Shown: in pieces, positions 21,993-56,749 of the stretch
Layout of the letters: each line of letters starts with the position of its first letter
How positions within the stretch are numbered: position 1 is the first letter of the stretch
DNA from: Akkermansia muciniphila
GTDB taxonomy: Bacteria > Verrucomicrobiota > Verrucomicrobiia > Limisphaerales > UBA11320
Length of the DNA stretch: 64,000 nucleotides
Direction: 5' to 3'
Assembly: GCA_945861575.1 (NCBI GenBank)
Contig: CAMAVD010000002.1
Location: 6,667-70,666, forward strand
The notes under the pieces: model-generated
What the model saw: the letters and a program-made list of their open reading frames with translations, nothing else
What the model was told of the DNA's origin: nothing
Databases searched by the model: none
Made by a program: the position numbers and the translations under genes

Positions 21993-22253
21993 TTTAACGA
22001 ACCGCTGTTTAGCAACCCAGAGGTCGCGGCGGCCTACGAGAATGCTAAGAAGGAAGGACGATATGATCGGGTAAAGCGCCGCGATTCGGAGGGGAGCGTG
22101 ACGCTGGATCGAGCCTATGCTCTGGTGAATCCGATGGAGTATTTCGCTGAAACCACCGAAGCCTTCTTCTCTCGCAACGACTTTTTTCCTTTCATCCGCT
22201 CTGAACTCAAGCAGCAGGATCCGGAGATGGATGGGCTCCAACCTTATGGTTGA
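21993..22253 (+). pseudogene. C-terminal relic of a zincin-like metallopeptidase
   Basis: 87-codon open frame with no start: ..AYALVNPMEYFAETTEAFFSRNDFFPFIRSELKQQDPEM... The NPxE[FY]FAE..E.FF pattern recalls MtfA/M90-type peptidase tails. The CDF gene start occupies where its N-terminus would be. Confidence 0.35.
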
Positions 22254-23818
22254 CGGACCTGATAGAATGCGCCACGTGCCAGGGGTGAAGTGTCCACTAG
22301 GCGAATCGTCGGGCCCAACGCTCGCACTTCCGCACTTGTCACCTGCACCCAATCGGGTCGATCCGGATTCACCGTCCGCCACAGTGTGAAGGACGCCTCT
22401 GCGAACCAACCCACGTCCAGCTGCAGGTGACCTCCCACAACCACCGGATCTTGGATGCGCGGAATGTTCCGCCATCCTGCCAGCTTCGCACGCAACTCAT
22501 CCAAACTGCGCTGCTCCTCTGCTGACAGCACGCGGCTCAATAGATCGGTGCCCTCGAGCGGATCCGCCTCCAGATCGTATAACTCATCAGGCTCGGAATC
22601 CAATTCAAGGAGCTTGTAACGTCCCTGCCGCGCGGCACGTCCCGTGGAGCTACCCGTGGGCGTGGCGCTGGTGTCCTCGATGAGCACGGCGAGCTGCTCT
22701 GGCTGAAAGGGACGATTTTCCAAGATAGACACGAGGGAGCGAGAGTCGTTTACCAAGCCCTGCGGGAGCGCCTGCGACGGAGTAACGCCCCCGAGCTCAA
22801 GGAGTGTCGCAAACAAGTCGACCACATGCACCACGGCATCACTGGTGCGCCCGGGCTGGACAACACCCGGTCCAGCCACGATGAAGGGCACGCGAACGCC
22901 GCCTTCATACAACGTATCCTTGGCCCTGCCTGCCCGGGTGTAAGGCGGCTGTATGAGACGCGGCACTGTGCCATTGTCGCCAATGAACACGATTGTGGTG
23001 TCGTTGGTGTCGATCCCGGCGATCATCCGGCCGAGCTCTGTGTCCATGGCCTCCACGGAGGCTTCGAAGTAGCTCCGAGGATTTCGTTGCAGATCAGCCG
23101 CACTCCCCGAGAGATGAGCATAGTGCGGGCAAAGATTCGTGGGCGGGAGATGGTGAGGAGAATGCGGCGCGTTGAAGGCAATCCATGCGAACCAGCGATT
23201 GGTTCCCTGCGATTTCGTCCACGTCAGAGCGTCGTTGACGTTGTCTGTCGTGGCGTAGCCTGAATAGTTGGCACGCGTCACTCCATTGGAGGTCTTGGTC
23301 CAGGTGTAAAAGCTCGACGCCGTCTGACCCAACACGGCAGGGAGCGAGCCAGAGAAGGAGGACCAACCTCCCAGCAACTTGGGCCCTGAGGCATCCCCGC
23401 CCAGATTCCATTTCCCAAAGCTGGCGCATCGATACGTGGGTGACAGCAGGTCAGGTAAAGTGACCTCATTGGTGTAGAGACCTTGCTCGGCGGCGCTCGC
23501 TATCACCTGAGTCACTCCAGTTCTAAAACCATAGCGCCCCGTCAGCAAGGCCGCCCGCGAGGGCGAACACGTAGGGTAGGCGTAGGCGTTGACGAACCGC
23601 ACCCCACGTCGGGCAAGGGCCGTGATCGTGGGGGTTGGCGGAATCGAGGCGCCGGAGTTGGTATTGTAGAGCTCGTGACCATCAAATCCATAGTCGTCCG
23701 CAATCACCAGCAGGACGTTCCGTGGGGCTGCCCCTTCGGAAGCCTCAGTGATAAAGAGACCAAGGAAAGTAAACAGCCAAGCCAACCCAACCGACCATGC
23801 TCCTCTTCTAGTTGGCAT
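22244..23818 (-). CDS. Cys-type sulfatase (arylsulfatase family) with extra C-terminal FYQV module
   Basis: Start MPTRRGAWSVGLAWLFTFLGLF (signal), NVLLVIADDYGFD, and the CSPSRAALLTGRY formylglycine signature. The ATG overlaps the upstream gene by 11 nt. Confidence 0.9.
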   Translation of the reverse strand: MPTRRGAWSVGLAWLFTFLGLFITEASEGAAPRNVLLVIADDYGFDGHELYNTNSGASIPPTPTITALARRGVRFVNAYAYPTCSPSRAALLTGRYGFRTGVTQVIASAAEQGLYTNEVTLPDLLSPTYRCASFGKWNLGGDASGPKLLGGWSSFSGSLPAVLGQTASSFYTWTKTSNGVTRANYSGYATTDNVNDALTWTKSQGTNRWFAWIAFNAPHSPHHLPPTNLCPHYAHLSGSAADLQRNPRSYFEASVEAMDTELGRMIAGIDTNDTTIVFIGDNGTVPRLIQPPYTRAGRAKDTLYEGGVRVPFIVAGPGVVQPGRTSDAVVHVVDLFATLLELGGVTPSQALPQGLVNDSRSLVSILENRPFQPEQLAVLIEDTSATPTGSSTGRAARQGRYKLLELDSEPDELYDLEADPLEGTDLLSRVLSAEEQRSLDELRAKLAGWRNIPRIQDPVVVGGHLQLDVGWFAEASFTLWRTVNPDRPDWVQVTSAEVRALGPTIRLVDTSPLARGAFYQVRQP

Positions 23819-25322
23819 AGGGTGCAATGGATGAGCGGGAGACCCTGTAAAAACGAGTCGCAGGCTTTGCCCCCACGGTCGGCTCGCTGACTCGACTCGT
23901 GCTGTTCGTCGCCGTGTGCACAGCGACACTCGCAAGCAAGCCCTCCTTCAAAGTGTCCCCGGCCGTGACCGAATAGCTCCCTCCCTCAACACTGCTCCAA
24001 GTGAGCGTAACGGTCCCATCGTCGTCCGACACGACCGGGCTTTCCATTCGCAGAGTGCTGTTGGCCCCTCCAACAAAGTTGGTGGAAACCGTCTCGGGGT
24101 AATTCCCGCCCAGAATCACCCCTCCGGTTGGATTCCCATAATACTGTCGGCCCACATTGTAGGGGAAGGCAGGTGTCCCATCGCTGTGTAGAGAGGTAAA
24201 GTAGGCATAGGTTCCGTTGGGGAATTCAGGAGTGACGCAGAAGCGGCCATTGTGCTCATCCAGATCGAAATCAGCACCCTGCTTGCGACCGAGATCTCCG
24301 AGGTAATCGTTGTCCTCCAGGTAGCGACCGAAGGGACGTACGGTGCTCACAGCAGGTCCGGCCTGTGCTGCAGTGAGGGTGGTGCTGACGCGACTCTGAG
24401 CTCGGGCTGCCCAGGCCGGTAGCGTCGTTCGATTCGCGACCGCCGAGATGCTGACGTCCCTGGGTACAAAACCGGAAACCATACGACGGACACCGCTAGC
24501 CGCATTAGTGGGATTGGCAAACGCATAAGGTCCATAAACCGGAAAACCATCACGGACCCATCCAAGAATAGGCGAGTGACGGGGAGGGACAGAGCCCGGC
24601 GCTTCACTATACAGCTTGGTGACCGGGTCAAAGTTTACGTGATCGCCTAGCCGATGCCTCAAGGCGATCGCATTGGCGTGGTAGTGATACTGCCCACTTC
24701 CCGGCTGGTGCGCGTTCGCCGGATCGAAGGTCACACCCTCATTCACAAACGCATCCCGGTTCCAGATGCCAAGCCCAGGATTTCCCTCTGTGCCGCCTAC
24801 CGCAGTGACCGAGAAGGCGTCCCGACTATCGAACTGAATCACCCCATCCACAAAGACTCCGATGGGACCCAGACCGGTTAGCGTCTTGGAGGCAGGGACG
24901 GTTGGTAGGAGTGGGAAGCGGTAGAGCGTCGCGGAGCTCTTGGGCAGGTTCATGAACAAAGCCGTATGGGCCGCATTTCCATACCAGGGACCCATGACAT
25001 GGCTGCCTAGCCCTGTTGTGCGGACATAGATCCAAGTGGGGGACGAGGAGACCTCATAGACCCCACAATAGGCGGGAAGGGTCTGGCTGATCGCCCCGCG
25101 ACTCCACGTGCTGACCGCACGGCCCGCAAGCCGATCGCCATCCGTCAAAAAAACGCGTCCATATTGGCCAGATGCTTGGGTAAACCAAGAGTCGATACGG
25201 GGGTCAGATGCCTGTGCAGACAGGGAGATCGACCCCAGAGAGATGGCCAGTGCCGCAACCGACTGCGCACGACAACTCCTCGCCGGTTTCCTTCGGATTT
25301 CCATGGATAGCATCAATAACAT
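23808..25322 (-). CDS. YHYH-domain secreted protein with C-terminal FYRV module
   Basis: 504 aa. Signal peptide, PGSGQYHYHANAI motif. Ends ...ATRFYRVSRSSIAPYAN. Confidence 0.7.
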   Translation of the reverse strand: MLLMLSMEIRRKPARSCRAQSVAALAISLGSISLSAQASDPRIDSWFTQASGQYGRVFLTDGDRLAGRAVSTWSRGAISQTLPAYCGVYEVSSSPTWIYVRTTGLGSHVMGPWYGNAAHTALFMNLPKSSATLYRFPLLPTVPASKTLTGLGPIGVFVDGVIQFDSRDAFSVTAVGGTEGNPGLGIWNRDAFVNEGVTFDPANAHQPGSGQYHYHANAIALRHRLGDHVNFDPVTKLYSEAPGSVPPRHSPILGWVRDGFPVYGPYAFANPTNAASGVRRMVSGFVPRDVSISAVANRTTLPAWAARAQSRVSTTLTAAQAGPAVSTVRPFGRYLEDNDYLGDLGRKQGADFDLDEHNGRFCVTPEFPNGTYAYFTSLHSDGTPAFPYNVGRQYYGNPTGGVILGGNYPETVSTNFVGGANSTLRMESPVVSDDDGTVTLTWSSVEGGSYSVTAGDTLKEGLLASVAVHTATNSTSRVSEPTVGAKPATRFYRVSRSSIAPYAN

Positions 25323-33523: not shown

Positions 33524-34048
33524 TCACGGCCCCTGGCGCGCGCGGTAGAAACGATACGGGTGGCTGGGCGCGGTGAAGTCCCAGAACTCATAGGGACTGG
33601 TCGTGTTCGTCCGCAGCGGCGTCCAGGAGGAGAAGTCGGTTGAGCCTTCGATGATGTAGCTGGGCACGGCGGTGGCCGTGACGGTCACCTTAAAGGGGCC
33701 GATGCTGCTCGCGTGGATCATGCTCAATTGGATACTACCCATGACATCGAAGTCGATTTGATCATTCCAGCGCGCGAAGTTGTAGGCTTGTTTGAGTCCG
33801 GAGAGCGTGAATGGCCCACCGAAGAAAACATCGTTGCCCAGCCAGGCGAAGTCGTAAGGCACGATCAATCCGCCACTCAACCCCGGAAGCACCGTCCAAT
33901 GCGAGCCGTCCCAGATGTCCACCTGGTTGTTCGTGGCGCCTCCGGGCGGGGTGAACAACCCGCCGGCGTAGAGGCGACCTTCATGATGGCGCAGTGTTGC
34001 GTCGGACGGTCTGACGGTCCGGGGGGTATCGGGCAGCATTGCCCCCAA
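33524..34048 (-). pseudogene. 3' remnant of a Kelch/propeller-like secreted protein retaining the C-terminal FYRA module
   Basis: 174 aa with no signal peptide. Begins mid-repeat (EGRLYAGGLFTPPGG..VDIWDGSHWTVLPG...FFGGPFT...FARWN) and ends ...STDFSSWTPL...HPYRFYRARQGP. It may still be expressed. Confidence 0.45.
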
Positions 34049-55116: not shown

Positions 55117-56749
55117 TCAGAACTCCGGATGCGCCTTGGTCACCTTCACTCGATAGAACCGCACGGCGGGGTTCGGTAACGCTGACGCCTCCACCAGGCT
55201 CACCAGAACCATCCCATCGGCTTGGAGCTGCTCAGTCGTCGTCGCGGCCGGGGCCTCCCAAGTCACCAAGTCGGACGAAATCTCAACCGCGTAATGGACC
55301 GCGTGTCCAAGCGGACGGCGGCGATACTCGAGAGTGATGGAGGACGAATTCCCCGCCACCACTCGCCGTATCCAGACCCAAGGTTGGAAGCTTGGTATCC
55401 TGGGATCGGCCCCAGCGGCATACTCAACAAGGTTTGAAACTCCATCGCCGTCCGGATCCGAATCATCCCCGGAGAGGGCCACGTGTGCCAGTTCGTCATT
55501 GCTAAAATGGCGCCGCCGCCACGCTTCGTAGGAAAGCGTCGCCTCAAACAAGTCGTTGGTAGGCCGAGGCCACGATGTATCCGCCGTTGGAATACACGAA
55601 GACGTCGCCTGGGTTATTCTGCAAGGGGAACCCCGCCAGCCAGCGGGCCATATCACGAGGGGTGAGCTTGAGCATATCAGCAATCCCCAGATCCTTGGCA
55701 CATCGGGACGTCCAGGAGACCGGGTTAAAACCGACCCTGCCCTCTGGGTTAGTGGCCGTGGCTGGGTCGAATCCCGCTGTATGGTTCAGAAGGTGTCGGA
55801 GCGTGATGGCGTTCAATCGAGGGTCCACCTTCGCACCCGCGAACGTCGGATATGGGAGATTCATCTTTGGGAACACCTGCTCATCGAGGCTTAGCCTCCC
55901 TTGTTCTGCAAGCTTCAGTGCGACGGTAGCAACAATCGCTTTCGTCATACTGGCGATACGAAAAATTGAATCTGGCTGGGTACGCTCGTTGTTCTCGGGA
56001 TCGGCATATCCATAACACCTGGCGGCGACCAAACGCCCATCCTTCATCACAGCGAGCGACGCTGCTGGCACTTGGTGATCCAGCATCATCGAGGTAATAG
56101 ACTTCTCGAGATTCGTCAGATTGACGAAGCTGACGCCCGTTGCAGGAGGCATCGTCTTGATCGTTATTTTCGCAACGGCACTGGTCAGACTCCCTGCGGG
56201 GTTGATTAGGACGATTCGATAGTCACCCGCGTTCGTGAGTTGGACCTTCGCGATGGTCAATGTTTGGTTGGTTTTGGAGGGAAGATCGGCCCCCTCCCAC
56301 TGCCACCGGTATCTCATTCCTGTCGTAGCGTTGGTGAACCGCACTCCGAGCGAGACAGATTGACCAGCCCAGGAGAATTGGGTCAGGGGCGGATCAAGGA
56401 TCCCGGGCGGATAGACCAAAACAACACGGGCAAGTTGGCTTGTGGTCGCCCCCTCAGAGTTTGTAACGACCACCCCGAATCGATAACCACTGATTTGGAG
56501 ATTGCTCAGGAGAAGCATCGGTTCCTTGGCGCCCGGGATGTTGGTGAAGGTACTGATTGTGGGGAAAGCGCGCCATTGGTATCCGAACGGCGGCGTGCCT
56601 TGAACTGCCACGGATAGAGTCACATCCGCTCCCACGCCATTGGTCTGGCCCTGGGGTTGCTGAGTAATGACCGGTTGCGAGCGAAGGGAGAGTGTCGCCG
56701 CAATCCAAAGGAAGACAAGCAGCAGGTGGATTCGAAAAGGTTTCATCAA
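55117..56749 (-). pseudogene. Ig-like repeats + class C-type serine hydrolase, truncated and frameshifted before its DPDGDG/FYRV C-terminal module
   Basis: Frame 1 (56749->55544): signal, three Ig-like units, ASMTK (SxxK), VYSNGGY (YxN), then a stop with no KTG motif. Frame 2 (from about 55570 to 55117): LSYEAWRRRHFS..DSDPDGDGVSNLVEYAAGADP...SSDLVTWEA...AVRFYRVKV. Confidence 0.6.

Follow-up and report, generated by a model that had tools for sequence, protein, structure and literature searches.

An uncatalogued Ig/FN3-type module at the C-terminus of unrelated, mostly exported proteins of Verrucomicrobiota

Four genes in a 64,000-nucleotide stretch of an Akkermansia muciniphila assembly (GCA_945861575.1, contig CAMAVD010000002.1, positions 6,667 to 70,666; hereafter the window) encode proteins with unrelated bodies and similar ends. 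These are a sulfatase, a YHYH-domain protein, a kelch-like protein and a serine hydrolase. All four tail-bearing open reading frames (ORFs) lie on the minus strand, at the positions given for them in an earlier note that was made from the sequence alone. Each tail is a short segment that carries F-Y-R, or a variant of it, close to the stop codon. The locus raises two questions: are these tails copies of one module, and is that module a sorting tag or an accessory domain that stays on the protein? Sequence comparisons indicate that all four tails are homologous copies of one module, with a confidence that is graded by tail. The module, here named the FYR module, is uncatalogued and is predicted to be a β-sandwich of the immunoglobulin (Ig)/fibronectin type III (FN3) fold.

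The canonical form of the tail is found in the kelch-like ORF (33527..33739, minus strand), where it reads GSIQLS...SYIIEGSTDFSSWTPL...RFYRARQGP-stop. The hydrolase tail (55120..55389, minus strand) reads ...ITLEYRRRP...HYAVEISSDLVTWEA...RFYRVKVTKAHPEF-stop, and has orthologous tails in P0002 and P0019. The tail of the YHYH protein (about 23811..24041, minus strand; VTLTWSSVEGGSY ... RFYRVSRSSIAPYAN-stop) belongs to a YHYH-type subfamily, and the tail of the sulfatase (about 22247..22459, minus strand; ...FTLWRTVNPDRPDWVQV...IRLVDTSP...AFYQVRQP-stop) to a divergent one. Pairwise BLASTP among the four tails was not significant (best E 0.011), and neither was a four-sequence MAFFT alignment. The window alone therefore could not prove the similarity seen by eye.

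A profile of the four window tails and two homologues (A1) was searched against 1.84 billion protein cluster representatives, of which 383 matched at E<=1e-3 and 25 at E<=1e-10. Simple iteration of a hidden Markov model (HMM) on the first match set drifted to classical fn3, and the purged "independent" model was essentially fn3; the family was rebuilt from units that were extracted from the A1 matches if BLASTP supported them against a window tail. About 140 units were supported by the kelch-like tail (E<1e-3), 27 by the hydrolase tail, 11 by the YHYH tail and none by the sulfatase tail. A word-indexed homologue search with the hydrolase tail as query returned three matches only. The family consensus is G.f.Lt..G.aG.tY.iqAStDL.tWtpl.TnT....G...ftDp.aa..p.RFYRvr, with conservation above 90% at W, F, Y and R.

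An external HMM, built from 71 units with zero window rows, was then scanned against all 716 window ORFs of at least 50 amino acids (aa). It recovered the kelch-like ORF at E 6e-21, the serine hydrolase at 8e-8 and the YHYH protein at 4e-7; apart from the four tail carriers, none of the 716 ORFs fell below E 0.5. The YHYH tail was still found at E 2e-5 once the four rows with the YHYH-type VTLTW motif were also removed. As a single sequence, the sulfatase tail was not significant against this model (E 0.9). The tails of five sulfatase orthologues matched the family model at 1e-4 to 2e-9, and the sulfatase-tail profile aligned with the family profile by hhalign at 97% probability (E 4.9e-11, 68 columns). 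The claim of the earlier note that a common C-terminal module sits on unrelated bodies is thus borne out, by the external HMM for three tails and by the profile comparison for the sulfatase.

The same note had reported an [ST]xD[LF]xxW strand in three of the four tails, which is true only in part. The motif is intact in the kelch-like (STDFSSW) and hydrolase (SSDLVTW) tails. The sulfatase tail holds a degenerate form with the same spacing, NPDRPDW, and the window YHYH tail has lost the motif. There, GDTLKEGLL (23934-23960, minus strand) stands where 15 orthologous tails read AS[TS]DLxxW. This tail lacks both the near-invariant Trp of the family and the Asp of the SxDLxxW hairpin, and the confidence of the AlphaFold2 (AF2) model dips at this site.

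The FYR module has a size of about 65-75 residues. No model in Pfam (2025 copy) or NCBIfam (2026) covers it, and none of the 74 family units scored above threshold in any Pfam or NCBIfam model (scan at E<=0.1), in keeping with the earlier note, which could name no family for the tail. AF2 prediction of the kelch-like tail from the 74-unit alignment gave six β-strands, with a predicted local distance difference test score (pLDDT) of 90 and a predicted template modeling score (pTM) of 0.75. The YHYH tail (pLDDT 80.5) was predicted with the same strand order, in five long and two short strands. A Foldseek search of the PDB gave no significant match for either tail model. The top matches, none significant, had template modeling (TM) scores of 0.55-0.64, and comprised FN3 domains (0.55-0.62), a de novo Ig domain and glycosidase C-terminal sandwich domains. 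The conserved features are a Tyr in the third strand, the S-x-D-L-x-x-W hairpin and the F-Y-R in the last strand. From the motif pattern, these positions look fold-determining (a hairpin like an Asp box, and a tyrosine corner) and unlike a surface site.

One of the closest known systems is fn3 (PF00041). It has a similar size and the Ig-like β-sandwich that is predicted for the module, and both occur in tandem arrays. An hhalign comparison of the family (A2) with bona fide fn3 units (P0024, P0121 and others) gave 94.5% at E 7.8e-8 over 58 columns, strands B to F; these units came from retrieval with the tail profile, and represent the most similar fn3 subtype. P0024 and P0121 themselves match Pfam fn3 at 224 and 122 bits. 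In the alignment, strand B pairs l.l.W with f.Lt.G, strand C has Y.ie.S, the hairpin carries the W, and the F strand pairs YRV with FYR. However, where fn3 has a seven-strand sandwich (A-B-E / C'-C-F-G), the FYR module has six predicted strands and no G strand, its chain stops 4-6 residues past the F-strand motif, its Trp lies in the C-C' hairpin and not in strand B, and it shows an extreme C-terminal bias. Pfam fn3 itself had no match in the four window proteins at E<=1, nor in the 74 units at E<=0.1. The YHYH-type ending RTALAxYD was considered as a G strand that completes the FN3 fold, and was rejected; AF2 shows no separate strand there.

Two samples of carriers were used to describe position and copy number. 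Sample one consists of the top 150 of the A1 search, ranked by summed score, and over-represents multi-copy proteins (130 of 151 listed matches). It contains 124 proteins with true units; 97 of them carry 2-9 copies, and the chain ends within 10 aa of the last unit in 96. Sample two consists of 100 matches to the four-unit protein P0006. Its 96 carriers divide into 70 with a single copy and 26 with several; in 92 of them, the stop comes no more than 10 aa past the last unit. Over both samples, the stop lies exactly 4-6 residues past the R of FYR in 169/227; P closes the chain in 84 and Q in 66. It is mainly an Ig+FYR subfamily (...YYRAKIQ) that accounts for the Gln endings. The tandem units have a median period of 78 aa.

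The module was expected by the earlier note to be always C-terminal. It is overwhelmingly so, as the counts above show, but not without exception. In the YHYH orthologues P0096 (607 aa) and a 787-aa ORF of locus L008, the unit is internal, with a Gly/Ser linker and another Ig-like domain after it; in P0200, 200 residues lie beyond the FYR unit. The note had also allowed that the tails might prove to be an ordinary annotated Ig/FN3 domain that occurs internally as well. They are indeed predicted to be Ig/FN3-type sandwiches, and are internal in some YHYH orthologues, but the domain is not annotated, and its bias is far beyond that of a generic Ig domain.

The bodies that carry the module are diverse. 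In the window, they are of sulfatase, YHYH, beta-lactamase and kelch-like type. Elsewhere, they include Ig_3/I-set (many of them Limisphaerales proteins of about 210 aa, named "immunoglobulin domain-containing"), fn3, DUF11, CARDB, Big_2, Big_7 and Big_9, as well as RHS/YD, NHL, LVIVD, proprotein-convertase P domain, EEP phosphatase and phosphoesterase. P0007 has no "cargo" and is made up only of a signal peptide, fn3 and three FYR units. The tails are inherited with their own bodies; orthologues of the sulfatase, YHYH protein, hydrolase and kelch-like protein in other metagenome-assembled genomes (MAGs) carry the matching subtype. The named carriers are mainly from Verrucomicrobiota MAGs (Limisphaerales, Pedosphaera). 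One C-terminal fragment of the Phosphoesterase family (PF04185) with a canonical FYR tail, P0162, is labelled as from a Terriglobales (Acidobacteriota) MAG. By this label, and barring contamination of the bin, the module also occurs outside Verrucomicrobiota.

What might the module do? It is most likely not a cleaved signal that is read by a dedicated sorting machine. Probably, it is a retained, non-catalytic accessory domain outside the cytoplasm, with a part in surface retention or interaction, or as a spacer. The module sits, singly or in tandem, right at the C-terminal end of proteins whose N-terminal bodies are unrelated. It may serve to hold proteins at the surface, to bind proteins or polymers, or as a spacer or stabiliser, and repeated copies would raise avidity. 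This proposal rests on the conserved positions, since these look like determinants of the fold. It is also supported by the tandem arrays, the internal copies in YHYH orthologues, the cargo-less P0007, and the retention of the tail in 5/5 sulfatase orthologues. Other observations weigh against it. The positional bias (92/96 and 96/124 near the end; 169/227 with the fixed distance, usually ending in P or Q) is far stronger than expected of a generic Ig-like accessory domain, and a near-fixed end at the C-terminus is a hallmark of sorting tags. The excess of multi-copy proteins is partly a matter of sampling, as sample one was ranked by summed score and sample two is 70/96 single-copy. Finally, the accessory function is one that we infer.

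By comparison, it is rather unlikely that the module genuinely serves for C-terminal sorting or anchoring, like the C-terminal domain (CTD) of the type IX secretion system (T9SS). In that case, it would be recognised after Sec export by an undescribed outer-membrane export or attachment machinery of Verrucomicrobiota, and would be removed or used as an anchor. The module lies at the extreme C-terminus in 77-96% of carriers, with the fixed end of 4-6 residues past FYR. Its bodies are unrelated and mostly have signal peptides, its distribution is centred on one phylum, and it is frequent, with four carriers in 64 kilobases (kb). The T9SS CTDs (PF18962/TIGR04183; CHU_C/type B TIGR04131) are likewise Ig-like sandwiches of about 70-100 aa, placed at the extreme C-terminus of unrelated signal-peptide proteins in one phylum-level lineage. 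However, the FYR module has no sequence match to them, often occurs in tandem and in some cases lies inside the protein. Arrays of 2-9 copies are frequent, which sets it apart from known sorting domains, and T9SS CTDs are single-copy and always terminal; here, multi-copy proteins make up 26/96 and 97/124 of the two samples. At E<=0.1, none of the units has a match to Por_Secre_tail, CHU_C, PEP-CTERM or an NCBIfam CTERM model, and PF18962/TIGR04183 and TIGR04131 do not appear among the Pfam and NCBIfam matches of the window proteins or the 74 units. The conserved residues also appear to be of core type.

The gene neighbourhoods point in the same direction. No candidate machinery adjoins any of about 15 loci inspected, and no recurrent machinery gene stands beside the carriers in the fetched loci, including six of 12-21 kb. 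The sole recurrent neighbour in these loci is a TonB-dependent receptor, in one subfamily only. Neither the 64-kb window nor the fetched loci showed T9SS machinery (PorU/PorV/SprA etc.); Verrucomicrobiota are not known to have T9SS. Sortase, exosortase and dedicated secretion genes were likewise not found in the window. PEP-CTERM is common in Verrucomicrobiota, and resembles the FYR module as a C-terminal element on diverse exported proteins. It differs in being a short motif with a transmembrane (TM) helix and a basic tail, whereas the FYR module is a folded domain of 65-75 aa that ends ...FYRxxxP, with no hydrophobic anchor and no C-terminal TM helix. The analogy to T9SS CTDs and PEP-CTERM tags drawn in the earlier note is therefore not supported, in view of the Ig/FN3-type sandwich, the tandem and internal copies, and the lack of a sorting-model match, a TM helix and machinery in the window. 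The tails were also considered as the β-signal of outer-membrane proteins. This was rejected, since the β-signal ends in an aromatic residue, and the tails end mostly in P or Q.

A more specific form of such a role is unlikely as well. An undescribed sorting or surface-attachment pathway, which Verrucomicrobiota would share with some Acidobacteriota, would then use the FYR module as its recognition or anchoring domain. The module would correspond, in the Planctomycetes-Verrucomicrobia-Chlamydiae (PVC) group, to the T9SS CTD, and tandem copies would be anchoring repeats. A pathway of this kind would explain the near-constant termination 4-6 residues past FYR.

It is quite improbable that the module is a small carbohydrate-binding module (CBM) of discoidin/CBM32 (F5/8 type C) descent, which would hold exported enzymes on their polysaccharide substrates or on glycans of the cell itself. 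Over its positions 11-61, the family profile matches 4zy9 and 2rv9 (E 6e-4), the chitosan-binding discoidin domains of Paenibacillus glucanase/chitosanase. Sub-threshold matches were found to F5_F8_type_C_2 in 9/74 units, to F5_F8_type_C in 3/74 and to DUF3999 in 13/74. Discoidin/CBM32 (PF00754, PF22633) and the central part of DUF3999 (PF13163) have the stretch ..l.W....Y.iq.S.D...W..v.t...g in common with the module. One window carrier is a sulfatase; CBMs on hydrolases are typically C-terminal and tandem, and discoidin domains also commonly take these positions on secreted enzymes. However, the matches are partial, covering model positions of about 47-91 of 91 or 64-88 of 127, and no full-length match at gathering score was obtained. 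Only about 50 residues align, and the PDB profile match spans 55. The FYR unit of 65-75 aa is half of discoidin size, with a predicted six-strand, Ig-type topology, as against a jelly roll of 130-150 aa. The common stretch is the Y.ie.S.D..W hairpin, and F5_F8_type_C_2 scores over this region in the fn3 units of P0024 and P0121 too. Moreover, many bodies are not carbohydrate-active (Ig only, NHL, LVIVD, RHS, beta-lactamase-type, EEP phosphatase), and no conserved surface aromatic platform is evident. A chance or compositional resemblance of short, strand-rich C-termini that happen to hold F-Y-R, which the non-significant pairwise BLASTP and the E 0.9 of the single sulfatase tail might suggest, is hardly credible and was refuted by the external HMM (6e-21 to 4e-7 for three tails, with no other match among the 716 ORFs) and the sulfatase profile-profile match (E 4.9e-11), alongside a common fold that is predicted with confidence.

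Among the window carriers, the sulfatase and the YHYH protein form a gene pair. The sulfatase gene (22244..23818, minus strand) matches Pfam Sulfatase (1.1e-40) and SGSH_C (1.9e-9). By inspection, its start is most likely MPTRRGAW at 23818, which gives the signal peptide MPTRRGAWSVGLAWLFTFLGLFI. This signal peptide (23795-23818, minus strand) opens MPTRRGAW, and the TRR may indicate the twin-arginine (Tat) type, not Sec. The tails of the sulfatase orthologues, all from Verrucomicrobiota MAGs, follow the pattern Y.LWR....l.W.p......tnG..vtL.D......FYrV. They evolve faster than the catalytic body, with identities of 22-36% vs 48-55%. The YHYH-domain gene (23808..25322, minus strand; Pfam YHYH, PF14240, 2.1e-36) encodes a signal peptide and lies 5 base pairs (bp) upstream of the sulfatase start. 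Its tail matches those of P0075, P0078 and P0084 by BLASTP at 1e-9 to 1e-10, and YHYH-type tails have VTLTWSSVEGGTY and RFYRV.RTALAxYD in common. The pair, with an FYR-type tail on each protein, is syntenic in three Verrucomicrobiota MAG loci (L004, L005, L008). In addition, the metagenomic gene calls P0078 and P0034 run through from the YHYH gene into the sulfatase gene, or vice versa. The conservation of the pair and the read-through gene calls suggest that the YHYH protein and the sulfatase are a functional couple.

The other two window carriers are decayed genes. The kelch-like/beta-propeller ORF (33524-34048, minus strand; 174 aa) contains about two blades and the tail. It has no signal peptide and begins directly past the stop (34124) of an upstream 1218-aa DUF7133/DUF6807 gene, and is therefore an N-truncated remnant. 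Its orthologues P0021 and P0155 were found on contigs of about 1 kb only. The serine-hydrolase gene (55117-56749) is a pseudogene. Its N-terminal part (55544..56749, minus strand) codes for a signal peptide and two Ig_3 domains, but for no more than the first half of a beta-lactamase-family domain, of which only model positions 3-152 of 329 are covered (Pfam). Three-frame translation showed this part to be out of frame with the tail ORF (55117-55701, minus strand; 194 aa), which consists of a TSP3-like linker and the tail. In the intact orthologue P0019, model positions 225-313 stand directly before SWPTNDLF..., the linker and the tail, and about 170 residues of P0019 are missing from the window hydrolase. 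L001, an independent metagenome contig with 99.9% identity, shows the identical lesion, so that this is a genuine pseudogene and not a sequencing error. The calcium-loop linker DSDPDGDGVSNLVEYAAGADP (55402..55464, minus strand) lies directly upstream of the tail. The same linker motif is matched by TSP3_bac (Pfam) in P0019 (E 7.5e-4), and the arrangement of linker and tail recurs in P0003, P0035 and P0005.

The description of all four as secreted proteins consequently needs to be qualified. N-terminal signal peptides were seen by inspection in three of them, but the kelch-like ORF is N-truncated and has none, and the hydrolase tail is cut off from the signal-peptide half by a deletion and a frameshift. 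Elsewhere, the window has the gene content of the PVC group, with PSCyt1/PSCyt2/PSD1, DUF1501, DUF6807/DUF7133, TonB-dependent receptors and ExbB/TonB.

In four different Limisphaerales-type contigs (L011:7899-10654, L012:7828-10624, L015:1670-4472 and L019:2916-8654), a TonB-dependent receptor is followed, 35-50 bp downstream, by the gene of a protein of about 207-217 aa that combines a signal peptide, Ig_3/I-set and a single FYR tail. A DUF4154 gene lies divergently upstream, accompanied in 3/4 contigs by a CHASE8-HAMP-GAF histidine kinase. In L019, an insertion sequence (IS) element separates the receptor from the small Ig+FYR gene. The arrangement looks like a conserved operon of a receptor plus an accessory protein.

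In summary, the fold and the general logic, an Ig/FN3-type accessory domain on secreted bacterial proteins, are already known. Neither Pfam nor NCBIfam contains this particular family, with its truncated six-strand form and its rule of C-terminal placement. No description of this Verrucomicrobiota C-terminal domain was found in open-access text, nor anything relevant on DUF3999. Verrucomicrobiota are abundant polymer degraders of soil, freshwater and gut, and the secretion and display of their surface proteins are poorly understood. On the favoured view of the FYR module as just an accessory Ig-like domain, the main benefit is better annotation; the finding would be surprising only if the module were a sorting tag. 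The module merits a curated model, as many exported proteins with unrelated functions end in it and a simple HMM suffices to recognise it. Such a model would improve the annotation of many "hypothetical" and "immunoglobulin domain-containing" proteins, would delimit a candidate subset of the exoproteome, and would open the question of a sorting tag to proteomics or phylogenetic profiling.

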